A DNA stretch of 64,000 nucleotides. Origin: Candidatus Woesebacteria bacterium (GTDB lineage: Bacteria > Patescibacteriota > Microgenomatia > UBA8517). Both the position numbers and the translations under genes were made by a program. This document shows, piece by piece, positions 5,958 through 62,570 of the stretch. The DNA is taken from assembly GCA_016432365.1 (NCBI GenBank), contig CP066686.1:793501-857500 (forward strand). The letters are read 5' to 3'. Numbering within the stretch: position 1 is the first letter of the stretch; each line of letters begins with the position of its first letter. The notes under the pieces are model-generated. The model made no database searches, had not been told where the DNA came from, and saw only the letters and a list, made by a program, of their open reading frames with translations.

Positions 5958-7958
5958 ATGGACTTAAATTCTCCCATTTCCGATCTCCCCAAAGTTGGGC
6001 CAATATTTGAAAAGAAATTTGAACGATTAGGGATTAATACCATCGAGAACCTCTTTTACCATGTTCCTTCGCGCTATCTGGACTATTCATTAATAACAAC
6101 TATTAACAAACTTCGAGCGGATGAAACAGTTACCATTCACGTCAAAATTGTCTCCATCACAAATATTTTTTCCAAAAGGGGAGTGCGAATGCAAATCGGG
6201 TCCGTGGAGGATGAAACGGGCAAACTAATGGTTGTTTGGTTTAACCAGCCGTTTCTTTTAAAAATGTTATACCCGGGAAGGCTTGTTTCGTTGTCCGGAA
6301 AAGTCGGATTTTTTAATAGAAAATTATGTTTGAGTTCACCCGATTACGAAATACTGGACGAGGAAGGAGACCAAACTTTCCACACAGGCCGTTTTGTACC
6401 CGTTTATCCCGAAACTTCGGGTCTTTCTTCCAAATGGCTTAGAACCAAAATCCGCGACGCATTTGCTGTAAGTGAAATCAAAGAATATTTACCAAAAGAT
6501 GTATTGACAAGGTCGGACCTTGTCAGTCTGAAGGAGGCGATACGGGAAGTTCATTTCCCTGAAAATCTGGAGGAAGCGGAGGAGGGGAGAAAAAGATTGG
6601 CTTTTAATGAAGTCTTAAATCTTCAATTAAAAAGTTTAATCAGAAAATCAAACTGGAAAGAAAATCGCGTCACCAACAAATTAAAAATTGACAGCTCGGC
6701 TATCTACAAGTTTATTGAATCCCTGCCTTTCAAATTAACCGATTCGCAATCAAAAACGATCAATGAAATCTTAAAAGATTTGGGGGGTGAAATCCCGATG
6801 AACAGACTCTTGGAAGGGGACGTGGGCAGTGGAAAAACAGTTGTAGCGGCAGTTGGCGCGTTTGCGGCTTTCCTCAACGGTTATCAAACTTTGATAATGG
6901 CACCCACTCAAATTTTGGCAACTCAGCATTACGAAACTCTCAATCGTCTTTTTTCCAAATTCAAACTTCGTCTCTCGCTTCTAACATCCAGCGTCAAACT
7001 TCACGATCTTGGACGAACAGATATCTTTGTTGGCACTCATTCATTAATTCACAGTAAAGTTGACTTTAGTAAAGTAGCCTTTGTAGTTATCGACGAACAA
7101 CATAGATTTGGCGTTGAGCAAAGAAGACACTTGGTTAAAAGAACAGGGACCCCACATGTATTAACAATGACCGCTACCCCAATTCCAAGAACTGTTGCCT
7201 TAACCACATACGGAGATCTGGATTTGTCGGTCTTGACCGAAATGCCGAAAGGCAGACAAAAAGTCACAACTTGGGTCGTGCCGGAGGAAAAAAGAGAAGG
7301 AGCATACGAGTGGATGAAGAAACAAATAGTGACCGAGAAATCGCAAATATTTATCGTTTGTCCATTAATAGAGGACTCAGAGACTGAAACAATGAAAGAT
7401 ATAAAGTCAGTCACTTCCGAATTCTTAAATCTTAAATCTGTATTCATAAATCAAAAACTCGGGCTGCTCCACGGAAGATTAAAATCAATAGAAAAAGAGA
7501 AAGTATTAAATGAATTTCGTGAGGGTAAAACAGATATTCTAGTGGCAACACCCGTGGTTGAAGTTGGGATAGATATTCCCAATGCCACCATTATGATGAT
7601 TGAAGGTGCAGAACGTTTTGGCCTTGCAGGACTTCACCAACTCAGGGGCAGGGTGGGTAGGGGCAGTAAACAGTCATATTGTCTACTATTCTCCAACTTT
7701 CACTCAGGTATGGCCTACACGCGCCTAAAAGCGATGGAAAAGAGTCATTCCGGCTTTGAGTTGGCAGAACTGGACCTTAAGCTCAGAGGCCCGGGCGAGA
7801 TCTTCGGAACAGCCCAATCAGGCTTCCCCGAGCTCAAAATTGCCTCTTGGAACAACTTTGAACTGATCAAAGCGACTAAAGAAGTTGCGGAGGATATAAT
7901 TAAAAACCCCAAAAAATACCCCTTGGTAAAAACCAAATTCGAAGCCTCAACTGTATAA
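5958..7958 (+). CDS. recG: ATP-dependent DNA helicase RecG
   Basis: N-terminal wedge/OB region, Walker A GDVGSGKT, DEQHRFGV (DExH) and helicase C motifs. Length 666 aa. Confidence 0.85.
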   Translation: MDLNSPISDLPKVGPIFEKKFERLGINTIENLFYHVPSRYLDYSLITTINKLRADETVTIHVKIVSITNIFSKRGVRMQIGSVEDETGKLMVVWFNQPFLLKMLYPGRLVSLSGKVGFFNRKLCLSSPDYEILDEEGDQTFHTGRFVPVYPETSGLSSKWLRTKIRDAFAVSEIKEYLPKDVLTRSDLVSLKEAIREVHFPENLEEAEEGRKRLAFNEVLNLQLKSLIRKSNWKENRVTNKLKIDSSAIYKFIESLPFKLTDSQSKTINEILKDLGGEIPMNRLLEGDVGSGKTVVAAVGAFAAFLNGYQTLIMAPTQILATQHYETLNRLFSKFKLRLSLLTSSVKLHDLGRTDIFVGTHSLIHSKVDFSKVAFVVIDEQHRFGVEQRRHLVKRTGTPHVLTMTATPIPRTVALTTYGDLDLSVLTEMPKGRQKVTTWVVPEEKREGAYEWMKKQIVTEKSQIFIVCPLIEDSETETMKDIKSVTSEFLNLKSVFINQKLGLLHGRLKSIEKEKVLNEFREGKTDILVATPVVEVGIDIPNATIMMIEGAERFGLAGLHQLRGRVGRGSKQSYCLLFSNFHSGMAYTRLKAMEKSHSGFELAELDLKLRGPGEIFGTAQSGFPELKIASWNNFELIKATKEVAEDIIKNPKKYPLVKTKFEASTV

Positions 7959-9404: not shown

Positions 9405-9451
9405 GTGACTGCCAATTGTTAATTCTTAATTATTAATTTATAATTGAGCCT

Positions 9452-9610
9452 ATGGTTCCATTACCAAAGAGAAAACATACAAGAAGTAGAACCGGAATCA
9501 GACGTGGAGGACAACCTAAAATGGTTCTTTCGAACCTAACAAAGTGCACCAGTTGTGGAAAATTGAAGGAAAATCACCGCGCATGCCCATATTGTGGCTT
9601 CTGGCGTTAA
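9452..9610 (+). CDS. rpmF: 50S ribosomal protein L32
   Basis: [52 protein letters not shown]. Below the 60-aa cutoff of the ORF track; Cys4 zinc ribbon. Confidence 0.75.
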
Positions 9611-9659
9611 TCCCTCTTGTCACTTGTCTCTTGTCGCTTGCCACTCTATACTAAATTCG

Positions 9660-12633: not shown

Positions 12634-13647
12634 CTAACCCTCGCGCATGGCCAAGCCAACTGCCACTGAATACAAGGACGCGTAGGGGGCAAGTTTTTTT
12701 GCGGTCTCGGGATCTACCGCGGTTTTTGCAAATGGATTTCCGACCAGAACTTCCAATCCCAAAAGCGAACTTAAGGCAGTAACAATTTCCCGCATGCTGC
12801 TTGTTCCACCAGAGATAATTATTGCCTTTGGAGAATCACCCTTTTCTTCAGTTTGGTAATAATTAATAGCCTTTTTAATTTCGTCTACTACCATCCTGAG
12901 GACCGGGTCAAGCGCCCCTTTAATTTTACCTTCCAGCTCCTTCGAAGAAAGCCCATATGTCTTTTTGTATTCTTCGGCCTGCATTGGGGAAATACCAAGG
13001 CCTTGGGAAACAGCCCGAGTAAATGCTTCTCCCGCAATTGGAATCGATCTGGAAAAACTTAGAAGCCCGTTTTTGGCAATAGCGATATCTGTACTGGTTG
13101 CTCCAAAATCAACAATCAAAACAGTTTTATCTATCGGAGCAAGAGCACGGGTTAGGGCAATCAGTTCCGTTTCAACCGCCACGGGTGTAAGCCCGGCCGC
13201 CTCCACCACTTTGGTATATCTTTCAACTACAGCCCTCGGGGCGGCAACTAATAAAACCAAAACCTCGGGCGGAGTAGACTTTTCATTACGTTCAAGAATT
13301 GTGTGTTGAATAATTGCTTCGGCAATAGGAATAGGAATATATTGTTCAGATTCCCATTTAATAGCGGAGGCAATTTCGGCATCGGTCAGCATGGGAAATC
13401 TGATGGTTCTGGTAAATACTTGAGACTCGGGAATGGAGATAACCACATCCCTCGACGAAACACCGGCTTCATTGTGGAGATGTTTAACAACGGCTCCCAG
13501 GTCGGCATATTCTTTATCGTCAATCATTTTGTCCACACTGTTGCCGGAGTAACCGACAATTCCGGAAGCGGAAAGAGAAAATCCTTCTCCTTCCTTTTGA
13601 AGTTCTACGATTTTAATTGTTTTACTACCAATATCAAGTCCAGTCAT
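12634..13647 (-). CDS. pilM: type IV pilus assembly ATPase-like protein PilM (actin fold)
   Basis: MTGLDIGSKTIKIVEL and an actin/FtsA-like fold (IVDFGATSTDIAI). Confidence 0.8.
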   Translation of the reverse strand: MTGLDIGSKTIKIVELQKEGEGFSLSASGIVGYSGNSVDKMIDDKEYADLGAVVKHLHNEAGVSSRDVVISIPESQVFTRTIRFPMLTDAEIASAIKWESEQYIPIPIAEAIIQHTILERNEKSTPPEVLVLLVAAPRAVVERYTKVVEAAGLTPVAVETELIALTRALAPIDKTVLIVDFGATSTDIAIAKNGLLSFSRSIPIAGEAFTRAVSQGLGISPMQAEEYKKTYGLSSKELEGKIKGALDPVLRMVVDEIKKAINYYQTEEKGDSPKAIIISGGTSSMREIVTALSSLLGLEVLVGNPFAKTAVDPETAKKLAPYASLYSVAVGLAMREG

Positions 13648-13700
13648 TTGAGCAGTTAAACCAGTATACTAGATACCAGCTACCAGTTGCTAGATACTAA

Positions 13701-14621
13701 TTATTTTGTAATCCCTGTTGAACTATAAATTGCAAAGTCAAAAACAGATGGCGGCTCCGGCCAACCCTGAAAAACACTTAAACGCCTATTAGATTGCCCC
13801 GCAGTACCTGTTGAATCAATTTGCGATCCTTGGGAGGGGAGTACCGTGTTTCCTGCAAAATTAACATCAAAGCCGATTTTGTGTGCAACATCGGTATTGT
13901 AAAAAATCCTAAGGCGCATAAACTGTAAACCATTTTGTGTATTATAAGAACCGGCAGGTATACCTAAGGTAGATAAATCAATTTCTTTTTGAAACTCATA
14001 GGTTTCGCTTCCGATTGTACAAGTTCCGGCATCGGGAGCAGAAAAACTATTTGGCTTAGCGGGAGTGTCGGAAGAAACCCTTGTTGTATATGGATCAAAC
14101 GCGGCTCTTGCGATTTTTATCGTTGCTAAATCCCCTGGAGTTGTTTCGTAAAAAACAGACATTTCTACCGCCGGAGTTGTTGAAGCCGATGCAGACGTTC
14201 CGGGATTTCCCCAACAAACTTTTACAGTTCTACCTATAAAACAAGGGCTACCAGCACCGCAAGTTAGATCGTCATTATTTGCCGAATCGTGTGCGACAAA
14301 CCAGACGGTTGCGGAATCCCCCGAAGTTAATGTTAAGGGATAAATATAATTGTTTGCCCCCTCTGCAACACTAGTAACACTGGACGAGTAAGTGGCATTG
14401 CCAATCGATATATTTGTTCCTCCCGCTCCGATTACCAAAGCTTTTTCTATTCCCGCCTCTGCCGCAGAAAAAGCACGGATCGCCTCTTCACTTCCCGAAG
14501 AAACCGCAATCCCGGTAATACTACGGGAAAGAATAAAAAGCACCAGAGTAAGTACTACCGCAAGGAAAAGAAGTATTAATACCAGTGCCTGACCGCTTTC
14601 TCTTTTGTACTTTACTTTCAT
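13701..14621 (-). CDS. hypothetical membrane-anchored protein with a pilin-like N-terminus lacking Glu+5
   Basis: KRESGQALVLILLFLAVVLTLV followed by a Ser/Thr/Gly-rich extracellular domain. Sits immediately upstream of pilMNO. Confidence 0.35.
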   Translation of the reverse strand: MKVKYKRESGQALVLILLFLAVVLTLVLFILSRSITGIAVSSGSEEAIRAFSAAEAGIEKALVIGAGGTNISIGNATYSSSVTSVAEGANNYIYPLTLTSGDSATVWFVAHDSANNDDLTCGAGSPCFIGRTVKVCWGNPGTSASASTTPAVEMSVFYETTPGDLATIKIARAAFDPYTTRVSSDTPAKPNSFSAPDAGTCTIGSETYEFQKEIDLSTLGIPAGSYNTQNGLQFMRLRIFYNTDVAHKIGFDVNFAGNTVLPSQGSQIDSTGTAGQSNRRLSVFQGWPEPPSVFDFAIYSSTGITK

Positions 14622-21342: not shown

Positions 21343-21882
21343 CTAATAACTTCTCAATTGAATTTGTGTACTTGAAGATATGGCTGTTGTTTGAGAACCT
21401 GTTCCGGCAGCGCTTTGCATTTCAAGAAAAACACTAACCGTAGGTGGGTTGGCTGCCGTGCCCGGAGCACATGTAAAATTACATGCTGTAACAAGCACAT
21501 CATCGGGTGTTAGTCTTCCTGAGCCGGAGGCAACGTAAGGGTCTGCCCCACTCATATTTATGCACGAAAATGAGGTTGCATCTCCGTTTTGATCAGTATA
21601 ATTTAAAATATGGTTATCGGTATTGGTGGCACAGTCGGGGACTGAGTTAGCATTTCTAATCTGGCGTTCTATAATACTCATGGTATAACCTAGGTTTTCA
21701 CTAACTTTTGTCTGAGCCTCGCTTTTCTTGCTTCCCTGTAAAGACAAAATAATTGAACCTGTAACAATGAGTCCTAAAAAAGCGAACAGTGTGACAACAA
21801 TCAAGATCTCAAGAAGCGACATCCCCTCCCAATTTTTGATTTTTGATTTTTGATTTTTGACTTTCATCATCTTTGTCTCCAA
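21343..21882 (-). CDS. type IV pilin-like protein (prepilin; real start probably 21870)
   Basis: Leader MMKVKNQKSKIKNWEG, then MSLLEILIVVTLFAFLG with Glu+5. The leader is encoded by a (TTTTTGA)x4 repeat. Confidence 0.7.
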   Translation of the reverse strand: METKMMKVKNQKSKIKNWEGMSLLEILIVVTLFAFLGLIVTGSIILSLQGSKKSEAQTKVSENLGYTMSIIERQIRNANSVPDCATNTDNHILNYTDQNGDATSFSCINMSGADPYVASGSGRLTPDDVLVTACNFTCAPGTAANPPTVSVFLEMQSAAGTGSQTTAISSSTQIQLRSY

Positions 21883-22320: not shown

Positions 22321-22872
22321 TCATTTGATCTCGCCTGACGAAGTTATAGTTATTACGAATGTGTTACTTATTCCCACCTGACTTACCGTAATTGTTGACT
22401 CTGCTCCGCTTACAAGGTTGGTTCCATGTCCCAATACTTTGAACTCAATTGGGTTGGGGGCAGGTGTTGAAAGAGTCATTCCGCTAGGTAAGTCAACTGT
22501 TTTAACTACAACTGAACCACCGGTGCAGTTTGCGGCTACAGAATATTGAGATGAACTATTAACTGTAAATATATATCCACCCAGACTATTCGGCGGGTTA
22601 CATTTTGCATCCAACGGTTTTTGCCCGGACAACGCCTGCTGTTGGGCGAGTCTCAGATCCCCCTGAATTACTTTCGCAATTCCGCTGACTGCCTGGCGTC
22701 TCGAAAAATCCCTGAAGCTTGCAAACCCAAAACCAAAAAGCATTCCTATGATTGTTAAACCCACAAGAACTTCAATCAGAGTGTAGCCAGAAACTTTTGA
22801 CTTTTGCATTTTGCATTTTGACTTAAACATCAGGGATTTGTTACTTTGTAGTTGCATGTTGCTGCTCCACAA
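22321..22872 (-). CDS. type IV pilin-like protein (real start probably 22830)
   Basis: Leader MFKSKCKMQKSKVSG, then YTLIEVLVGLTIIGMLFG. Confidence 0.7.
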   Translation of the reverse strand: MWSSNMQLQSNKSLMFKSKCKMQKSKVSGYTLIEVLVGLTIIGMLFGFGFASFRDFSRRQAVSGIAKVIQGDLRLAQQQALSGQKPLDAKCNPPNSLGGYIFTVNSSSQYSVAANCTGGSVVVKTVDLPSGMTLSTPAPNPIEFKVLGHGTNLVSGAESTITVSQVGISNTFVITITSSGEIK

Positions 22873-23318
22873 GAAGTGGCCGCAACAACCCCACAGGAAG
22901 TAGTAGCTCCACCTTGTTCAAGAGCTGCACACAGTTCGTATGTAGAACCGTCTAATGAATAATACTTGTAATCACTGTTGGGAGAAGTAGGGTCAAACGG
23001 AACCTCAGAAAGATAGATGTTGGTATCTAAACAAGAGGAAGTAGAAAGTCCGTCACCTTTAAGCTGCGCTCCAAGTGTCAATGGGTACTTATTACAATCA
23101 GCCTTATATATTTCGACAGCACTTCTTATTTGTTCCAGATCGGTCTTTCTTTTTGCGTCCCTGGCCGACTGTCTGGCACCCTGAAGTCCAAAAACGGAAA
23201 GGCCGATAAGAATTCCTATTATGGAAATCGTCACCAGAAGTTCGATCAAGGTAAATCCATCAGATTCGTTGTCTTCCCTTCTTTTCGACCTTTTTTGCAC
23301 TCTCAATTCATAATTCAT
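22830..23318 (-). CDS. type IV pilin-like protein
   Basis: Leader ...RREDNESDG, then FTLIELLVTISIIGILIG. C-terminal Cys pairs. Confidence 0.7.
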   Translation of the reverse strand: MNYELRVQKRSKRREDNESDGFTLIELLVTISIIGILIGLSVFGLQGARQSARDAKRKTDLEQIRSAVEIYKADCNKYPLTLGAQLKGDGLSTSSCLDTNIYLSEVPFDPTSPNSDYKYYSLDGSTYELCAALEQGGATTSCGVVAATSCGAATCNYKVTNP

Positions 23319-23334
23319 AATTCAATATTCAATT

Positions 23335-23847
23335 TTAGAGAGGGCATACCCCTCCTACCGGCAAATTCCAACTCGCCGTATCAATTGTTCCGACTTTTCC
23401 CCCTGAACAAATAACCCAATATTTATCGGAGCTCTCCAACTTATCCCACAAAACATATTGAGTTCCCAGTGCCGTTCCGTCCGAAGCAGTTCCATCTGAT
23501 TGATATTTATAAACGAAAAGACCTGTGGTGTCATTTACGCTTGGATCGGCAGGACAACCTGTCATAGACAAATCTGTACAGAGTGTGGTAGCTGCTCCCA
23601 CTCCTGAAGCATCCGGGCGTGATGGATAAAAAGTGTTATTTTTATTAGCGTAACTTTCCAGCGAACTTTGAAATTGTTTGATGTCTGATTTTCGTTGTGT
23701 GTCCCTCGCTTGGCGCTGAGCCGTGGTAAACGAAGCCAGTGATAGGGCAGCCAAAATTCCTATTATAGAAATCACGACCAAAAGTTCGATTAGTGTGAAG
23801 CCAAAACTTTTCGCTTTTCGCTCTTCGTTTTTCGTTATTGATATCAT
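23335..23847 (-). CDS. type IV pilin-like protein
   Basis: MISITKNEERKAKSFG, then FTLIELLVVISIIGILAA. Confidence 0.7.
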   Translation of the reverse strand: MISITKNEERKAKSFGFTLIELLVVISIIGILAALSLASFTTAQRQARDTQRKSDIKQFQSSLESYANKNNTFYPSRPDASGVGAATTLCTDLSMTGCPADPSVNDTTGLFVYKYQSDGTASDGTALGTQYVLWDKLESSDKYWVICSGGKVGTIDTASWNLPVGGVCPL

Positions 23848-26067: not shown

Positions 26068-26086
26068 TTTTATATAGTCATATTAA

Positions 26087-26114
26087 AACAAAATGTCAGT
26101 TTTGACATTTTGTT
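26087..26114 (-). promoter_or_regulatory. perfect 12-bp inverted repeat hairpin between pilD and the downstream pilin
   Basis: AACAAAATGTCA-gttt-TGACATTTTGTT. On the minus strand it is followed by TTTTAATAT. Confidence 0.4.
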
Positions 26115-26143
26115 TGGCAAGCATAGAATTCCTATATACCGAA

Positions 26144-26183
26144 CTCAAAACATAAAGTTGTAAAACCGTCATTTTGTTTTGAG
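26144..26183 (-). promoter_or_regulatory. inverted repeat (9-bp arms, 22-nt loop) just after the pilD stop
   Basis: CTCAAAACA...TGTTTTGAG. Confidence 0.3.
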
Positions 26184-27608: not shown

Positions 27609-27665
27609 CTACAAACTAGTATTCAATGTTTGAATAGGCTTGTCAAGTACCATTATGTAACAATA

Positions 27666-32502: not shown

Positions 32503-32513
32503 AGTTAAACAGT

Positions 32514-32600
32514 CAAAAGGTAAAAGTTAAAAGGTAAAAGTTTCAGAAATTTTTGAATTTTGATTTGTAATTTTGAATTTTGCATTTTGAATTTTGAATT
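32514..32600. repeat. tandem repeats: 2x14-nt AAAAGGTAAAAGTT, then ~7 copies of heptamer TTTGAAT
   Basis: Read directly from the pilB-pilT intergenic sequence. Confidence 0.7.
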
Positions 32601-34344
32601 ACTCTTGTGCAACTCTCAGTATCTCTTCCACTGTAGTGATTCCTTCAGCAACCTTCAAGTACCCATCCTGTTTAAGTGATACCATTCCTGCCTCTCTCGC
32701 TGCATTGTCTATATCTCCGGCCGAGGCCCGTTCCAAAATAAGTTTACCAATTTTTTCTGTTACCGTGATAGTCTCAAAAATACCCATTCTTCCCAAATAA
32801 CCCGAGTTTCCGCAATCCGGGTCCCCCTTACCTCTATAAAGTTTGACCTCTCCCTGTGGCTGCCAAAGACTACCCAATTCTTTCTTCATCTCGCTTACAA
32901 TTTTAGGGTCTGGAACATAACTTTCTTTACAATCGTCATGGATTTTTCTGACAACTCTTTGGGCAACAAGACAGGTAATAGAGGAGGCCAATAAGTACGG
33001 TTCCGCGCCCATGTCTAAAAGCCTGGGTAGTGCACCTGAAGCATCATTTGTATGAAGTGTAGAAAATACCAAATGTCCGGTTAACGAAGCCTGAATGGCA
33101 AGATCCGCAGTTTCGCTGTCGCGGATTTCTCCTACAAGAATAATGTTTGGGTCCTGTCTAAGAAATGATTTCAATCCGTCGGCAAATGTGAGCCCAACAG
33201 CAGTGTTGATTTGGACCTGATTGACGCCGGGGATTTTGTATTCGATCGGGTCTTCCAATGTAACTATGTTGACTTTTGGAGTATTTAGTCTGGATAAAAC
33301 AGAATACAAAGTGGTCGTCTTTCCGGAACCCGTTGGTCCACAAATTAAAATAATTCCATGCGGACGCAAAATTGCATCCTGAAGATCTTTAAGACTTTTA
33401 CCCCTAAGGCCCAATTCCTGAAGCGTAGGGACTCCCCCGGATTTTTTGAGTAAACGCATCACAATTTTTTCTCCCCAAGTTGTGGGCAGAGAAGAGATAC
33501 GAAGGTCTACTTCTTCCTCACTACCTTTAAAGTTGAATCTACCGTCCTGGGGAACTCTTTTTTCGTCAATTTTCATCCCTCCCAAAATTTTGATTCTGCT
33601 TATTAATGAATCGTGCAGTTCCTGCGGAATTGTGAGCTTCTCCTGTAAAATTCCGTCAATTCGATAGCGAACTCGGGTTGACTTTTCTTCGGGCTCAATG
33701 TGAACATCGCTGGCCCTTGATTTAATAGCAAAGTCGAGTATTTGGGATACAATTTCTGCTATTTTTTCTTCTCTTATAAATCCGCCTCTGGAAACTTCGG
33801 CAGCTTTAATTCCTTCTCCTTTTCCTCCGGGTGTAACTTCTTTCATTGCAGCCGTAACCTGTTTGGTTAATGAGGTTGTATAGCGGGTTTGAATAAAATC
33901 GTCCACTTTCATGGGCTCCGCCGCGTAAGTTTTTACATGGAGACCTGTTTTTTGTTCGATAAATTCTATAGCCGCAAGATCCAGAGGATCAGCCATGGCA
34001 AGGCCCAAACTTTTTTCTTTTTTATCGTAATTAACAGGGAAAACTCTAAATCTTTCTGCGACCTCCGAGGGGAGTGCTGCTAAGGCATTGGGGTCAATCG
34101 GAGCAGTGTTTAAATCAACATATGGGATGTTATAGAGTTGGGCTTTAGCTTGAACAAGTTTATCTTCAGGAACCATCGAGGCCTCTTTAATAATGTCTTC
34201 CTGTGTTTTACCGCTTTGAATTTCGGTGAACTTTACCTGTTCGGCACGCCGTGCATCGAGTGCCCCCAAAGTCACTAAAATATCAGCAAGAGTTCCGGTG
34301 GAGTTTAAACTATTAGTACCGTTTACAGGTTGAGCAGTGGGCAT
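32599..34344 (-). CDS. pilB: type IV pilus assembly ATPase PilB (GspE family)
   Basis: N1/N2 domains and Walker A GPTGSGKTTTLY. No tetracysteine motif found. Length 581 aa. Confidence 0.85.
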   Translation of the reverse strand: MPTAQPVNGTNSLNSTGTLADILVTLGALDARRAEQVKFTEIQSGKTQEDIIKEASMVPEDKLVQAKAQLYNIPYVDLNTAPIDPNALAALPSEVAERFRVFPVNYDKKEKSLGLAMADPLDLAAIEFIEQKTGLHVKTYAAEPMKVDDFIQTRYTTSLTKQVTAAMKEVTPGGKGEGIKAAEVSRGGFIREEKIAEIVSQILDFAIKSRASDVHIEPEEKSTRVRYRIDGILQEKLTIPQELHDSLISRIKILGGMKIDEKRVPQDGRFNFKGSEEEVDLRISSLPTTWGEKIVMRLLKKSGGVPTLQELGLRGKSLKDLQDAILRPHGIILICGPTGSGKTTTLYSVLSRLNTPKVNIVTLEDPIEYKIPGVNQVQINTAVGLTFADGLKSFLRQDPNIILVGEIRDSETADLAIQASLTGHLVFSTLHTNDASGALPRLLDMGAEPYLLASSITCLVAQRVVRKIHDDCKESYVPDPKIVSEMKKELGSLWQPQGEVKLYRGKGDPDCGNSGYLGRMGIFETITVTEKIGKLILERASAGDIDNAAREAGMVSLKQDGYLKVAEGITTVEEILRVAQE

Positions 34345-34463
34345 ATTTGTAACTGAAAACTTAGAGCTAAAATCTAAGAGCTCTTATACATTATTACCTA
34401 AAGCGCCATTAGTATCAAGATCCCACTTGATTAGTTACTGGTTATTCGATATTAGTTAGTAAT

Positions 34464-36999
<2,536 letters not shown>

Positions 37000-43999: not shown

Positions 44000-44812
44000 A
44001 TGACTAAATTTAATTCAGGCAAAGCTTCGGTTTTAGCGCTTACGTCTGTTTTCGTCGTCGCGACTTTTCTCCTTGGTAAATCCCTGACTTCTGTTTTTGC
44101 CAGGGCTGGTGATGTTCCAAAAGCGTACTGCCATGCAGCTGGGCGTGAGGAAACTGATCACTTTAATTATCATTACAATCGGGCTTGGACATCTCACTTT
44201 TATAATAACGGAACACCGAAAGCAGGTCACGAAGACGATTTCTACACAGTAGTAGGGGACAGAAATTGTGACGGTCAAGCAGACTCAAGCCCTACGCCGA
44301 CACCTACACCTACGCCGACAGCAACTCCTAGAGAATGCGAAGAAGATGAGGATGAGTGCAGTACACCTACACCAGAACCGACAGCAACCCCGGAAATAAC
44401 TGACGCTTGTCCAAATATTGAAGGTATTCAAGACTCCATACCGGAAGGATATTTCCTAAACAGTGATGATAACTGTGTCGAGGGAGAAGAACCCACACCA
44501 ACTCCAGACGCTGATGTCTGTGACAACCTTGATGGTGTTCAAACGGGATTACCAGAAGGAATGCATTTTGATGCCGCAGGTGTAAATTGTGTAAATTTTG
44601 GTCAAAGTGGGCCAGCACCCAGGAACGACGAAGGAACAGGTGGGCAGGTATTGGGAGCCTCCACTGTAAGAGGCCAAGTATTGGGCGCTTCCACAATGGC
44701 AAAAACAGGTAGTTTTGAAGAAAGCCTTTATATAGCTATAATGGGTGTAGGTGCAATCATTACTACGCTCGGTGCGAAAAATCTCAAGAAAGCTTTCAAA
44801 GCGGCTAACTAA
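44000..44812 (+). CDS. surface protein with Cys-containing repeats and a C-terminal sortase-type sorting signal (MAKTG-like)
   Basis: Signal peptide, TPTPTP linkers and repeated C-x-N-x-x-G-[IV]-Q modules. C-terminus is MAKTGS + hydrophobic stretch + KNLKK. Overlaps the downstream sortase gene. Confidence 0.45.
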   Translation: MTKFNSGKASVLALTSVFVVATFLLGKSLTSVFARAGDVPKAYCHAAGREETDHFNYHYNRAWTSHFYNNGTPKAGHEDDFYTVVGDRNCDGQADSSPTPTPTPTPTATPRECEEDEDECSTPTPEPTATPEITDACPNIEGIQDSIPEGYFLNSDDNCVEGEEPTPTPDADVCDNLDGVQTGLPEGMHFDAAGVNCVNFGQSGPAPRNDEGTGGQVLGASTVRGQVLGASTMAKTGSFEESLYIAIMGVGAIITTLGAKNLKKAFKAAN

Positions 44813-45356
44813 ACTTCAAGTTAAACTTCAGAGTGGTAAAAACCCAATCATTGTCGTAACCTTCGGCATGTTTCTTATTTTTGTAGGAGCCTCCCATTAC
44901 TATCAACTGCGGATTTTATCGTTTAGGGGGCCTCTTGCCATGGCACAGAACGCACAAAGGGGCGAGTTGCCGGTTCAGATTACTATTCCCTCTATAAAAA
45001 TTGACCAGCCGATCGATGTAGGTACAATCCAAAATGGCGTTTGGCTTATCTCATATGAGCACCCGACTTTTTTAGATACTTCGGCCAGGCCGGGAACAGG
45101 CGGAAATACAGTTATTTATGGTCACAATAAAAAAGTTATTTTTGGAAACCTGCCATATGTAAGTATCGGCCAAAATGTTTTTATCAAGGTTGCGAGTGGG
45201 AAAATATATAAATATGAAATTTATCAGAAAGATTTTGTTAGTCCCGATAGAATAGATTTGGTTTCACCGGAAAATAAAGAGGACTTAACAATCTACACTT
45301 GCTGGGGCTTATTTGATTCACAACGTGCCGTTATAAAGGCAAGGCCTATGTTTTGA
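44751..45356 (+). CDS. sortase (transpeptidase)
   Basis: N-terminal TM anchor, catalytic His in VIYGHN, LTIYTC Cys motif and a downstream Arg (KARP). Confidence 0.65.
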   Translation: MQSLLRSVRKISRKLSKRLTKLQVKLQSGKNPIIVVTFGMFLIFVGASHYYQLRILSFRGPLAMAQNAQRGELPVQITIPSIKIDQPIDVGTIQNGVWLISYEHPTFLDTSARPGTGGNTVIYGHNKKVIFGNLPYVSIGQNVFIKVASGKIYKYEIYQKDFVSPDRIDLVSPENKEDLTIYTCWGLFDSQRAVIKARPMF

Positions 45357-45450
45357 CCTATTATTTCTTCACCCTTGTTCGGATGCTCCTTGTAAGTTAA
45401 AATGACACCCGAGAAGCTGGCTAGCTCATTTAACACAAGGAGAAAACCGA

Positions 45451-45942: not shown

Positions 45943-46133
45943 ATAACTATAAAAACAGAGATTTGACGGCCTAAAGCCATCGAATAATGCTAGCCAGCTC
46001 CTCTGTTTTTTTTGTTTTAGTATCTCCCCATTGCTTCATAAATATTGTTGAGGTAGAATCATTTAAGGCTAATTGAGCCTGTTTTTTATGTTCGTAATTA
46101 TTAATTCTTAGTTATTAATTCTTAATTTAGCTT

Positions 46134-51905: not shown

Positions 51906-52964
51906 ATGAAAAACATATTTTTAGATACTTTCAAAAACTACACTGTTGAATCCGTAACAAGCGGACACCCCGATAAAATTTGTGATCAAGTTTCCGATGC
52001 CATACTCGATGAATGCCTCCGCCAGGATCCCAAAAGTAGAGTAGCTATAGAAAGTTTTGGCGCGCACGGACTTTTTGTGATCGGTGGAGAAGTTACAACC
52101 AATGCTAAGTTTGACGCAAAAAAAATTGCGGCACGAGTTTACAAAGAAATTGGGCATTTGGATAAACTCAAATTTGTAACAAACATAATTAAGCAATCAC
52201 CCGACATTGCCATGGGGGTAGATACCGGCGGGGCAGGGGATCAGGGCATCATGTACGGCTTTGCTACCGACGAAACTCCGGAATACCTCCCCAGAGCAGT
52301 TGCTCTTGTACACAAGCTTACAAAAGGATTGGAAGAGCTTAGACGTTCCAAAAAAATCAAATGGCTTCTTCCCGACGGCAAGGCCCAAGTAACAATAGAA
52401 AACGGAAAAATCAAAACAGTTTTGGTTTCGGCCCAGCATAAGAAAGGTGTAAAACTTGAACAAGTGCGCAAGGAAATTTCCGAAAAATTAATTAAAAAAC
52501 TTGTGCCCGGTATTAAAGATGAAAATATCCTAGTTAATCCTACAGGTAAATTTGAGGTAGGAGGATTTATCGCTGACACAGGACTAACCGGCAGAAAAAT
52601 CATGGTTGACTCTTACGGAGGACTTATTCCACACGGCGGTGGAGCGTTTTCCGGAAAAGATCCTACAAAAGTAGATAGGAGCGGCGCCTACATGTGCCGA
52701 TTTGTCGCTAAAAACCTGGTTGCAAAAGGAAAGGGTAAAAGTGTTCTCGTTTCTGTTGCTTACGCTATCGGAAAGGCAGAGCCACTAATGATCGATGCTA
52801 AAAACGAAAAAGGTAAAGATCTTTCAGATTATGTTAGGAAACATTTCGACTTTAGGCCATTGGCTATCATCGAAAAACTAAAACTCAGAAACCCCATTTA
52901 TTCCCAAACCGCCGCCTATGGCCACTTCGGCAAAAAAGGTCTTCCCTGGGAAGAGATTGAATGA
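51906..52964 (+). CDS. metK: S-adenosylmethionine synthetase
   Basis: ESVTSGHPDKICDQVSDAILD and GGGAFSGKDPTKVDRSGAY. Confidence 0.85.
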   Translation: MKNIFLDTFKNYTVESVTSGHPDKICDQVSDAILDECLRQDPKSRVAIESFGAHGLFVIGGEVTTNAKFDAKKIAARVYKEIGHLDKLKFVTNIIKQSPDIAMGVDTGGAGDQGIMYGFATDETPEYLPRAVALVHKLTKGLEELRRSKKIKWLLPDGKAQVTIENGKIKTVLVSAQHKKGVKLEQVRKEISEKLIKKLVPGIKDENILVNPTGKFEVGGFIADTGLTGRKIMVDSYGGLIPHGGGAFSGKDPTKVDRSGAYMCRFVAKNLVAKGKGKSVLVSVAYAIGKAEPLMIDAKNEKGKDLSDYVRKHFDFRPLAIIEKLKLRNPIYSQTAAYGHFGKKGLPWEEIE

Positions 52965-60260: not shown

Positions 60261-61028
60261 ATCGAGGCTAAATGTGACCTCACTAAATCGATTTTAAAGG
60301 CCCTCTAGGTCAAAAGACGACTATATGGTCGTCTTGTTAAGGTCGTATTTACGGTAAAAACAGTCAGTTAAATTATTTGAAAAACTTTTAAAAGAAAGAT
60401 AGGGAGGTGCAGTGGTAGGAGGAGTCAAACCATTCGGTCTTTATTCGGAAGAAGTATTTTAAGGAAAAATCTAAAAATAGAGTATTTATACAATATCAAA
60501 ACATAAAAGATGAAAATTAAAAGCTAAAAGTTTTTTAAAATAACGTAAGAAGTACTACACTACGTCATCAAAATTATTCTGCGTCGCAAAAGTATTATTG
60601 TGCGACCTTATATAATTTACTTCCTTCTGGAAGTTCGTCACAAATACGCCTCAGGTTCGCGGGATAGGGTTAAACACGCTTAAAATACCCAAACGTAATA
60701 GACATCTATTCCCTCATAAAGAAGTAGTCGATTTTACGTTTAACCATTTAGTTATCCACACTACGAGAGATGATGGTCAGTTAGTATAATCTCGAGCGTG
60801 ACAAGTATATCAATCTATATCACCCATTGCTGAAGACCTATTGTGTTTTCTTCGGGTTGACAAATACGTCGCATTTCGTGAAAAGATCCTATAATTTTCG
60901 TGAAAACAACCTCTGTCTGAAGTGATAATACCCTATAATTATAGGATACTTTATTCCCCTCCTCCCCTCTCTCGTTCTCTGTTCTGCCTAAAATTTTAAT
61001 TCTAATTTCTTAATTATTAATTAATTTG

Positions 61029-61799
61029 TTATCCGCCCCAGTGAGTGGCTATATACATTGCAATAAAAACTAACGTTCCTACTACAAGGTGTTCCCTAAC
61101 GATTGTGGGAAAAAGACGATCTTCAAGTTTGGCTTGACCAAGTCCTAATAGCATATAAAAACTCACTGTTAAGAACAGTGATCCTACCATCACGGTTACC
61201 GGCCAAAAATATAAAGCGCCTCCAATTTCAGCAGTAACAAGTGAGCAAATCAAAGAAAGTTTTAGCATATCTTTTGAAAATTCTTTTTCCAATACCACCG
61301 ACCAAAAACCCTGAAAGTAAAGAGGTAGTGAAATGACTAATATAAGAGGTATTAAATAATAAATTTCTGCCTTGAGAGAAAGTACGGCATCAAAGACAAA
61401 AAAGGAAGTAATTAAGGTGAGGACAAACCCCACTCCCCTTGCCGCCCGCAAAAGAGCAATTGTACGGATCGCCGCCACAGTGTAAATATTCATTGTAAGA
61501 CTTAAAACGTACATCCCGACTGCGTAAAATATTACAATAGGTATTCTTGTAAAAACGCTTGCAGGAAGTAGAAACCAAAAAATTCCAACGCCCAATGTGA
61601 AGACGGTAGGAAGAACTAAAGTGAGGAGAGTCATATCACGTCCAAGGTTTCCCCATAACGACCATCCAAAAAGGATTGTTGTAAAGATTCCTAAAACGCC
61701 GATTGCCCAAAGCCTGTTTACATCCGTTAAAAATTGAATGCCCACAAAACCAAGTGACAGAAGGAGTGAGGCGATAACAAAACGGCGGCGTTTAGACAT
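61029..61799 (-). CDS. hypothetical polytopic membrane protein
   Basis: About 7-8 predicted TM helices. No family recognised. Confidence 0.45.
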   Translation of the reverse strand: MSKRRRFVIASLLLSLGFVGIQFLTDVNRLWAIGVLGIFTTILFGWSLWGNLGRDMTLLTLVLPTVFTLGVGIFWFLLPASVFTRIPIVIFYAVGMYVLSLTMNIYTVAAIRTIALLRAARGVGFVLTLITSFFVFDAVLSLKAEIYYLIPLILVISLPLYFQGFWSVVLEKEFSKDMLKLSLICSLVTAEIGGALYFWPVTVMVGSLFLTVSFYMLLGLGQAKLEDRLFPTIVREHLVVGTLVFIAMYIATHWGG

Positions 61800-61802
61800 A
61801 TT

Positions 61803-61841
61803 CTAGTATCTAGCTACTAGTTACTAGATACTAGTAGCTAG
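61803..61841. promoter_or_regulatory. CTAG-rich quasi-palindromic motif TAGTATCTAGCTACTAGTTACTAGATACTAGTAGCTAG
   Basis: Lies between the yebC stop and the membrane-protein start. Matches the motif upstream of pilM (13663-13699) at 21 of 24 positions. Confidence 0.45.
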
Positions 61842-62570
61842 TTTATTCATTACTTCATCCGGAATTTCGACATTGGTAAAAACCTTTTGAACATCTTCAA
61901 GCTCGTCCAGTGCATCTAAAAACTTGACCACTTTTGATGCTTGATTGGGATCAGAGATTGCTTGTAAGTTCTTAGGTTTCATCTGAAGCTCAACTTGAGT
62001 GATTTCAAAACCTTTGGCCAATAGATCTTTGTGGATCTCACCAAGTTTTTCAGGGGCAGTATAAACCTCAATACCATCTTCAGTTTCATTAACATCTTCT
62101 ACCCCACCTTCAATTAAAGATAACATTTCGCCCTCCGGGTCGTCGGTTTTTTTAACAAGCATAAAACCCTTGCTCTCAAAATTAAACGAAACCGCCCCAG
62201 GCCCGGCTAGGTTTCCCCCATTTTTATCAAAAACATTTTTCATCTCTTGAGCTGTTCTATTTTTATTATCACTTGCAACATTAACCATAACAGAAATTCC
62301 TGCAGGCCCATAACCTTCGTACATAATTTCTTCCAAACTGGCGGCGTCTGTGGTAGCTTTAGCTATTGCGCGGTCGATATTTTCCCTCGGCATACTCACG
62401 GCCCTGGCTTTATCAATTTCAAATCTTAACTTGAAGTTCATGTCGGGGTCTGCTCCACCTTTGGCCGCTATCATAATTGCACGAGCCATTTTGCTAAAAA
62501 CATTTCCCTTAGCCGCATCGTTTATGGCCTTCTGTCTTTTAATGGTGGCGAAGTGACTATGACCGCTCAT
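61824..62570 (-). CDS. yebC: YebC/PmpR-family transcriptional regulator
   Basis: MSGHSHFATIKRQK...KGGADPDMNFKLR. Start trimmed to the family-typical MSGHS, whereas the ORF track extends to 62717. Confidence 0.8.
   Translation of the reverse strand: MSGHSHFATIKRQKAINDAAKGNVFSKMARAIMIAAKGGADPDMNFKLRFEIDKARAVSMPRENIDRAIAKATTDAASLEEIMYEGYGPAGISVMVNVASDNKNRTAQEMKNVFDKNGGNLAGPGAVSFNFESKGFMLVKKTDDPEGEMLSLIEGGVEDVNETEDGIEVYTAPEKLGEIHKDLLAKGFEITQVELQMKPKNLQAISDPNQASKVVKFLDALDELEDVQKVFTNVEIPDEVMNKLATSI

Follow-up and report, generated by a model that had tools for sequence, protein, structure and literature searches.

The 64,000-nucleotide stretch of the Candidatus Woesebacteria genome analysed here (contig CP066686.1; hereafter the window) carries two CTAG-rich sites, site A in front of the pilus genes pilMNO and site B between yebC/TACO1 and a DUF5656 gene, which share a sequence of 24 nucleotides. 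The shared sequence consists of a seven-base repeat, CTAG followed by TAN, in three to four units, and both sites belong to the class of heptanucleotide repeats already described in bacteria. They are probably CTAGTAN members of a genome-wide class of promoter-proximal heptad arrays that changes in steps of seven, site A being selected at pilM and site B being specific to the species.

Seven-base arrays in the window

On the minus strand, positions 13676-13699 (site A) read TAGTATCTAGCAACTGGTAGCTGG and positions 61810-61833 (site B) read TAGTATCTAGTAACTAGTAGCTAG. A first-pass annotation of the window had reported 21 matches in 24 positions between them, which is correct, and the three mismatches are all transitions. 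Allowing up to three mismatches, the degenerate 24-mer matched only A and B in the window and nothing in 100 dinucleotide shuffles; there are two copies in ~75 kb of the source genome. The scarcity of CTAG on which the annotation had relied is equally real: CTAG is the most depleted palindromic tetramer of the window, with 57 copies against 91 expected from a second-order Markov model and 233 from base composition alone, and A and B together hold eight of the 57. What the annotation had missed is the period of the two sites. In site B, CTAG occurs at 61803, 61810, 61817, 61824, 61831 and 61838, a strict period of 7, and in site A plus-strand CTAG or CCAG occurs at 13669, 13676, 13683 and 13690, again with period 7; Tandem Repeats Finder reports period 7/14 at site B. 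With at least about three to four head-to-tail 7-nt units taken as an array, B has six units and A five. The unit CTAGTAN is TAACTAG in another register. With the CTAG cores of A restored, a hand count of the 15 variable positions gives 10 at which A and B agree, which is only borderline evidence for anything past family membership. A and B are alike because both are CTAGTAN arrays, and not through a shared pilus regulator. The two sites and the elements within them are the following.

13663-13700, minus strand: site A, array TTAGTAT CTAGCAA CTGGTAG CTGGTAT CTAGTAT ACTGG (heptad and autocorrelation scan)
13663-13668, minus strand: TATACT, -10-like, overlapping the last unit of A, 15 nt 5' of the pilM ATG (13647)
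61803-61844, minus strand: site B, six units CTAGCTA CTAGTAT CTAGTAA CTAGTAG CTAGATA CTAGAAT, then the DUF5656 ATG (61799) (scan)
61810-61841, inside B: perfect 12-bp inverted repeat CTAGCTACTAGT / ACTAGTAGCTAG with an 8-nt loop
61805-61810, minus strand: GATACT, -10-like, 5 nt before the DUF5656 ATG, a putative box suggested by the leaderless-type architecture found genome-wide

The two sites are not isolated cases. A self-match scan (28-nt window, at least 68% identity, lags 2-22, with block shuffles as control) found 15 regions at lag 7 in the window, or ~2.3 per 10 kb, against 0-3 regions at other lags that are not multiples of seven and about none in the shuffles. One of these regions, 61798-61846, covers site B. 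Non-coding DNA makes up only 5.2% of the window, yet eight of the 15 arrays lie mostly in it (P = 2.5e-7), and arrays abut the ATGs of rpmF, nusB, pilT, gyrA, pilM and DUF5656. The units vary from site to site, as seen in the arrays found besides A and B.

9407-9451, plus strand: AATTNTT x5, rpmF (L32) promoter, TTGTTA (9416) -17- TATAAT (9439) -7- ATG (9452)
9608-9652, plus strand: CTTGTCN array between rpmF and nusB, TTGTCT (9624) -17- TATACT (9647) -7- ATG (9660)
32504-32607, minus strand: pilB-pilT spacer, TTCAAAA x7 directly 3' of the pilB stop and TTTTACC x4 ending 9 nt before the pilT ATG
46090-46130, plus strand: ATTCTTA/ATTATTA x5 ending 2-3 nt before the gyrA ATG (46134)
21822-21874, minus strand: perfect (TCAAAAA)x4 in a prepilin leader peptide (MMKVKNQKSKIKNWEG / MSLLEIL)
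22785-22828 and 23802-23844, minus strand: pilin-leader arrays of GCAAAAK and CGAAAAR units
23294-23342: array at the start of a pilin gene
60989-61025, minus strand: AT-rich heptads (AAGAAAT/TAGAATT type) directly after the DUF5656 stop
60498-60532: further array in a 768-nt non-coding gap
7423-7457, plus strand: weak period-7 stretch in the recG coding sequence (frames by hand)
34778-34823: weak period-7 stretch in the holB coding sequence (frames by hand)

In the pilin leaders, heptad arrays within the coding sequence span 21832-21864, 22793-22824 and 23807-23834 (minus strand); a unit gained or lost in (TCAAAAA)x4 would frameshift the minor pilin. The window is identical to Logan contigs of the runs SRR12113419, SRR12113420 and SRR12113421, which represent one population. 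Two contigs end within perfect arrays (at 21861, Logan contig L121, and at 32594), reflecting either heterogeneity or the limits of assembly. A hypervariable contingency locus finds no support in the assemblies of the three runs, which show no copy-number differences.

Among related contigs, designated here by L numbers, the presence of lag-7 arrays is patchy: per 10 kb, the density is 2.5 in L137, 7.5 in L139 and 1.4 in L122, 0.5 in L142, and 0 in both L126 and L128.

Probable promoters at the arrays and selection at site A

A -10-like hexamer, defined as at least 4/6 matches to TATAAT with A2 and T6 and ending 4-9 nt before the start, precedes 28 of the 65 genes of the window, against a background of 13.5%. 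Boxes with at least 5/6 matches at the same distance precede 16 of them (for example at 5958, 7984, 8781, 9452, 37660 and 54023), against a background of 3%, while a Shine-Dalgarno-like sequence is found in only six. Most genes look leaderless, the -10 box typically lying 5-8 nt from the ATG. The promoter would therefore be the few dozen bases 5' of an ATG, and the arrays lying there promoter DNA. By consensus matches, the rpmF and nusB arrays are complete TTGNNN-17-TATAMT-7-ATG promoters. Both recur in L137, where the rpmF array has kept its position with the units AATTGNN x5 and TTGTCAC units also lie 5' of nusB.

Contig L137 (CAZBTH010000019.1) carries the GTDB label "uncultured Gammaproteobacteria bacterium SRP062349_co2_276" and is syntenic with the window, with 90% identity in PilM; the contig or bin is in fact a mislabelled Woesebacteria/Microgenomates relative.

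Two minus-strand genes flank the 53-nt spacer that site A occupies: a gene for a PilX_N-like pilin (13701-14621) and pilM (12634-13647), the product of which is 92-93% identical to PilM of Microgenomates bacterium GW2011_GWC1_39_7b. From the upstream stop to the ATG, the orthologous spacers compare as follows, with PilM identities relative to the window.

Window: TAA-TTAGTATCTAGCAACTGGTAGCTGGTATCTAGTATACTGGTTTAACTGCTCAA-ATG
L137 (PilM 90%): TAA-TTAGTATCTAGCAACTAGTAGCCAGTATCTAGTATACTGATTTAACTGCTCAA-ATG
L122-125 (PilM 92%): TAA-AAAAGTATCTAGTATAATTATATAACTGCTCAC-ATG
L126 (PilM 80%): TAA-AGTATACTAATTTAACTGCTCAA-ATG
L128 (PilM 79%): unrelated sequence

The window and L137 spacers are identical at 49 of 53 positions (92%), whereas pilM itself is close to saturation, with 41% identity at its 151 fourfold sites and 50% at third codon positions. 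Site A is the centre of a conservation peak of ~180 nt (~13790-13610), which covers the upstream gene's end and reaches into pilM. Because the array is nearly unchanged where synonymous sites are saturated, it is functional at pilM, and site A is under purifying selection. The four differences between the two spacers are all transitions; three of them turn CTAG into CTGG or CCAG and one is a G/A change in the following ACTGG. At 13676-13686, compared with L137, CTAG cores of the same unit have been changed to CTGG or CCAG in different lineages. These transitions in the CTAG cores are consistent with a drive against this tetramer, mutational or selective; its observed/expected ratio in the window is 0.63.

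The closest sequenced relative of the window at site A, L122-125, has a shorter spacer. The long form of the window and L137, TAA-TTAGTATCTAG[CAACTRGTAGCYRGTATCTAG]TATACT, differs from its short form, TAA-AAAAGTATCTAG-TATAAT, by a single clean indel of 21 nt (3 x 7) with the direct repeat GTATCTAG at its bounds, so that the length changes here by a multiple of seven. Such an indel, bounded by GTATCTAG, is the mark left by slipped-strand mispairing or by recombination between units. The array is reduced to about two units in L122-125, and it is absent from L126 and L128. The -10-like hexamer ~15 nt before the pilM ATG is kept as TATACT or TATAAT in four species. In L122, a -35 hexamer is well spaced from it (TTACAA-17-TATAAT), and in the window and L137 this hexamer is displaced by ~21 bp, or two helical turns.

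Site B takes in the TAG stop (61826-61824) of yebC/TACO1 together with the five codons before it and ends just before the ATG of DUF5656, a membrane-protein gene (locus tag HYV90_04740). All 24 of its core positions are intact, while its 18 variable positions differ freely. The array is missing from both orthologous yebC/DUF5656 junctions examined (L142 and L143; DUF5656 79% identical), one of which has an unrelated spacer of 18 nt and the other overlapping genes. Site B is a species-specific array, and it now supplies the yebC stop, a 12-bp hairpin and the only -10-like hexamer before DUF5656. The C-terminal tail of YebC/TACO1 (..NKLATSI*, 61824-61841) is encoded by the array, and the orthologues end otherwise (..SQISSE*). 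From the positions of CTAG, TAG occurs in all three frames of both strands across B; a six-frame stop cassette as a purpose shared by the two sites was discarded, for it holds for B only, the two TAGs of A sharing one frame. The array at 60989-61025, after the DUF5656 stop, has a counterpart of similar units at the same place in L142. The 768 nt 3' of DUF5656 (60261-61028) have no open reading frame (ORF) longer than 35 aa and no Rfam match and contain two heptad arrays; gaps of similar length follow the orthologous DUF5656 gene in L140 and L142.

Array length changes in steps of seven, presumably through slipped-strand mispairing or recombination between units, and arrays collect in very short spacers 5' of starts and in tolerant coding ends such as the prepilin leaders and the yebC tail. 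There they may act as promoter or spacer DNA, setting distances and supplying -35-like (TTGNNN) or -10-like (TANNNT) hexamers. Site A would most likely be part of the pilM promoter and short 5' region, where a 21-bp insert of two helical turns may have created a hairpin-capable inverted repeat. Site B is an array of this species alone that came to supply a stop codon, a hairpin and a -10-like hexamer.

Several points weigh against this account. The promoter and spacer role of the arrays comes from consensus matches only; by the same measure B has no recognisable -35, a sigma-70 consensus scan found no promoter inside A or B, and the pilT array has no -10-like hexamer at the right distance. The single sigma-70 match near A, TTTATA-18-AATAAT, ends at the stop codon just 5' of it. 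No difference in copy number was seen, the assemblies of the three runs being 100% identical over A, B and the TTTTACC array, and A kept its unit count across a deep divergence, which is unusual for a slippage-prone repeat. A role at the RNA level would account equally well for the conservation of A. Moreover, the genome was surveyed over the window plus 5.3 kb (L140) and 5.2 kb (L281), that is ~75 kb of ~1.08 Mb, and the period of exactly 7 is explained neither by this account nor by the literature.

Alternative readings, other genomes and other features

A role of the arrays at the RNA level is unlikely in our view, but has several points in its favour. The arrays would be transcribed as intercistronic or 5' RNA and act either as hairpins (decay barriers, processing sites or partial terminators in the gaps separating yebC from DUF5656 and the pilX-like gene from pilM) or as platforms for proteins binding in a 7-nt register. 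A and B each lie between co-directional genes. The perfect hairpin of B reaches -18.3 kcal/mol on the gene strand (z = -3.3), and none of 200 shuffles was as stable. The same long imperfect hairpin can form at A in the window (-13.4 kcal/mol) and in L137 (-11.8 kcal/mol), whereas the short L122 form cannot fold (-0.2 kcal/mol), and where the window has its two A-to-G changes, U-A and A-U pairs in the inner stem become U-G and G-U wobbles. However, compared with shuffles, the fold of A lacks significance (z ~ -1.5), and one of the L137 changes breaks a pair. The other arrays are mostly unstructured (z = +1.6 for the pilB-pilT spacer), so that an RNA role is possible for A and B but is no general property of the class.

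Further observations speak against an RNA-level element. No intrinsic terminator is found at B on the gene strand, where the hairpin is followed by AUACUAGAAUAUG and no U-tract; a scan for terminator-like structures flagged B on the antisense plus strand only, with a T-rich tail, and had no match at A. An Rfam search of the whole window at gathering thresholds found no family at the arrays, its sole match being a SAM riboswitch. With -10 boxes 5-8 nt from the ATG, a proximal promoter would leave much of each array untranscribed. In addition, the CTAGTAN trio is inverted with respect to its flanking genes in all five other genomes where these are co-directional and direct in the window and L137, and this inconsistent orientation is evidence against a single strand-specific RNA function.

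Among possible readers of such an RNA, HutP binds three UAG triplets 4 nt apart. A HutP-like reader of UAG-N4-UAG-N4-UAG would find five or six UAG triplets with the same spacing in B, and TAG-N4-TAG-N4-TAG occurs only there (61804-61825, both strands). Site A is without three consecutive UAG-N4 units, and the orientation of the arrays relative to genes is inconsistent across genomes. Cold-shock or S1 proteins of the oligonucleotide/oligosaccharide-binding (OB) fold are other candidates, and RNA-binding readers have been proposed for repeats of this kind (PMC4679880).

The occurrence of CTAGTAN arrays in other genomes bears on the remaining alternatives. A search for TAGTATCTAGNAACTNGTAG in 185,579 species-representative genomes (596 Gb) gave ten matches, in a member of the Saccharibacteria, two Bacteroidota, two Cyanobacteria, a Dialister bin, two unclassified bins, another Woesebacterium and L137, and all ten extend as CTAG heptads. 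Other period-7 arrays lie near nine of the ten (2.8-8 kb each), L134 reaching the threshold at lag 21 only, and the units TTCTTAA and CTCTTGA are common to the window and other loci. One cyanobacterial locus with the trio also has (TATCAGT)8, which is a TAACTGA repeat. All nine matches examined are outside called ORFs and five are directly 5' of a start codon, with mutually unrelated neighbours (DedA/VTT, VanW, metallo-beta-lactamase, zwf/tal, pfkB, mraZ and a protein with a type IX secretion system tail). In the Flavobacteriaceae contig L138, ~650 nt (1963-2600) consist almost entirely of heptad arrays (TTAATTC, ATCTTTG and CTAGTAN), and a 334-nt spacer in Saccharibacteria (L130, 7040-7341) is similarly built of heptads, several with the same units as the window. 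An unbiased sample of arrays of at least three CTAGTAN units, drawn from metagenomes with N left free, comprised 129 arrays. About 80% of these are homogeneous and 24 are heterogeneous, with many orders of N (AGA, GGA, GAG, TGTG and others), and some of the latter mix CTAG and CTGG units like site A.

It is improbable that the arrays are a neutral by-product, that is, functionless slippage debris tolerated in unconstrained sequence, with a similarity between A and B that is coincidental within the CTAGTAN family. The absence of B from both orthologous junctions, the range of array density among relatives (0 to 7.5 per 10 kb), the difference of units between sites, the agreement of A and B at only 10 of 15 variable positions and the abundance of heterogeneous arrays with many N orders in metagenomes all speak for such debris. 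It does not account for the 92% identity of A where neutral sites are at 41%, nor for the retention in position of the rpmF and post-DUF5656 arrays across species. The intact cores of B (24/24) beside its 18 free positions are not uniform neutral decay either, and the promoters within the rpmF and nusB arrays are complete and correctly spaced.

The first-pass annotation had suggested an operator or promoter element common to mostly pilus operons. Taken as a shared operator through which a single transcription factor would control these operons together, this is very improbable. Site A does precede pilMNO and is conserved in L137, and B forms a good dyad, but B sits between yebC/TACO1 and DUF5656 with no pilus gene, so that the motif does not recur "mostly" at pilus operons. 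It is found neither in the major pilin promoter (27609-27665) nor in the pilB/holB and pilT spacers. The region between pilB and holB (34410-34442), cited as carrying a related motif, shares short words and one 11-mer with it and falls below the period-7 threshold, the stretch in question being the following.

34400-34463, plus strand: TTAGTTA CTGGTTA TTCGATA TTAGTTA GTAAT ATG, degenerate and sub-threshold, before holB

The words taken as links to other sites occur at chance level outside A and B, with five copies of TAGTATC against 4.2 expected in the whole window and four of TACTAGT against 3.7. Upstream of the first pilin, TACTAGT (27615) belongs to a canonical promoter, TTGACA-17-AATACT, as its -10/discriminator, 9 nt from the ATG. 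As for the comparison with orthologous promoters, A is kept in L137 but shortened or absent in L122-125, L126 and L128, and B is absent in L142 and L143. The changes between the window and L137 hit the CTAG cores, the supposed recognition bases. No candidate for a cognate DNA-binding regulator came to light in the window, where no search aimed at a TrpR- or HutP-type protein was made. A pilus regulon was rejected because the same CTAGTAN arrays elsewhere precede unrelated genes and arrays of other units precede rpmF, nusB, gyrA and pilT. Of the "shared operator or promoter element" proposed for A and B, what stands is promoter-proximal DNA, with A under purifying selection; the shared pilus operator falls. 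Operators containing CTAG exist elsewhere, for example those of TrpR, which consist of tandem CTAG-centred half-sites 8 bp apart. A TrpR-like operator was excluded, the spacing here being 7 at every step. The annotation's own alternative, a short repeat family, comes nearer the truth, except that the repeats are tandem heptanucleotide arrays and not dispersed.

Finally, a miniature mobile or dispersed palindromic element, of the type of repetitive extragenic palindromes or miniature inverted-repeat transposable elements, inserted at both sites and spread across phyla, is hardly credible: B is palindromic and the exact 24-mer TAGTATCTAGTAACTAGTAGCTAG is found in metagenome-assembled genomes of Saccharibacteria, Bacteroidota, Woesebacteria and an unclassified bacterium and nearly exactly in two cyanobacteria, but the source genome has only two copies in ~75 kb, the ten matches in other genomes have no common flanks, terminal repeats or target duplications, and each continues as a heptad array among further heptad arrays. 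The CTAGTAN family is large and leaves three free positions per trio, and occasional identical 24-mers are therefore expected across 596 Gb. These combinatorics explain the recurrence of an identical 24-mer in ten genomes, which was no longer taken to indicate a mobile element or a universal site. Two viral matches to a 20-mer were set aside as chance matches inside coding sequence, and a scan of viral contigs for four CTAG units found only ordinary microsatellites among the matches listed.

Other features of the window include the SAM riboswitch (RF00162; 51816-51931, plus strand, 53.5 bits), directly 5' of the S-adenosylmethionine synthetase gene (51906-52964). No tRNA or transfer-messenger RNA gene was found in the window. 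In a first greedy ORF map, 44813-45450 (638 nt) was without ORF, and a candidate GTG ORF of 201 aa (44751-45356) overlaps most of it. A hairpin-containing sequence of ~50 nt, TGCCAAACAAAATGTCAAAACTGACATTTT..TAATATGACTATATAA, lies at 26068-26120 and at positions 1-50 of L281, so that the source genome has at least two copies; at 26163, beside the first, two independent Logan contigs end, and a third (L281) ends in the second copy. Just left of the window, L281 carries a tRNA-like sequence at ~130-215, with a GTA anticodon loop by eye.

Known heptanucleotide repeats and significance

A close parallel to the arrays described here is provided by the TAACTGA repeats, which lie just 5' of starts lacking a Shine-Dalgarno sequence in Beggiatoaceae, Cyanobacteria and Bacteroidetes, are missing in close relatives and show 7-nt indels (MacGregor 2015, PMC4679880). 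[quoted passage not shown] Both are mixed with other heptamers in spacers, precede unrelated genes including ribosomal protein genes, vary by indels in steps of 7 nt, are absent in close relatives and have a patchy spread across phyla. In the other register, the window unit (TAACTAG or CAACTGG) is only 1-2 nt from TAACTGA. However, the host here belongs to the Patescibacteria or candidate phyla radiation (CPR) (Woesebacteria), which is not listed in PMC4679880, and the CTAG core is palindromic and hairpin-capable. Moreover, the evidence here favours promoter DNA of leaderless-type genes and not ribosome-binding RNA, and one array, site A, is shown by its conservation to be under purifying selection.

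Heptamers were found to be the most abundant class of long simple sequence repeats (LSSR), with polymerase slippage as the proposed source (Mrazek et al. 2007, as cited in PMC4679880 and PMC4692102), and heptameric short tandemly repeated repetitive (STRR) sequences are known from the cyanobacterium Calothrix PCC 7601 (cited in PMC4692102). As far as these citing papers describe them, LSSR and STRR share with the present arrays the excess of period 7, the intergenic bias, the phylogenetic scatter and the proposed origin by slippage. Going by the same accounts, they differ in being long perfect runs, whereas those described here are short, with 4-7 units, mostly heterogeneous, and show no population-level length variation in the assemblies of the three runs.

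Fixed cores with variable positions are also found in the repeats GGGAATC/GGGANTN of Xanthomonas and GGGGA(C/T)T of Nostoc, which conserve positions 1-4 and 6 and mostly have about four units (Rehm et al. 2015, PMC4692102). Like the present arrays, GGGANTN repeats are heterogeneous intergenic heptads; they occur between the same genes in sister species and some form inverted pairs (PMC4692102). They are G-rich and form quadruplexes, which arrays that are AT-rich or CTAG-cored cannot.

Units of 7 bp in promoter regions are known from surface and virulence genes, where copy number alters expression: in Vibrio cholerae the TTTTGAT repeats at ctxAB (bioRxiv 10.1101/2021.05.14.444153), and in Haemophilus influenzae those at hmw1A/hmw2A (PMC8262952). 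The TTTTGAA x7 repeat between pilB and pilT (32551-32600; TTCAAAA on the minus strand) is one base from the ctx unit. Those repeats are perfect, vary between strains and have known binders (ToxT/H-NS) or phase variation, whereas the present arrays are known from sequence alone. No report of tandem heptad arrays in CPR bacteria was found in the literature searched, which is absence of evidence only.

For the annotation of such genomes, a CTAG-rich "shared motif" should not be taken as a signal of a pilus regulon. More broadly, heterogeneous heptads with a core of 4 nt and 3 variable nt could be selected, start-proximal control elements found across phyla and read in a 7-nt register by a conserved machine, an idea that we regard as a long shot. 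On leaderless promoters this machine may be RNA polymerase or sigma; on RNA it may be a cold-shock or S1 protein of the OB fold. If it were true, the arrays would have reached CPR, Cyanobacteria, Bacteroidota and Beggiatoaceae by horizontal spread or convergence, and the reader would have left its footprint in intact cores, free spacers and a pilM array kept almost perfectly across saturated synonymous divergence.

These results add a CPR genome (Woesebacteria) to the lineages carrying heptanucleotide repeats, the commonest long simple repeats of bacteria. They place the repeats in what appear to be the promoters themselves of a mostly leaderless genome, with pilM as a clear case of purifying selection where neutral sites are saturated. 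The locus is thus a small system in which one can test whether promoter geometry is tuned by heptad arrays.

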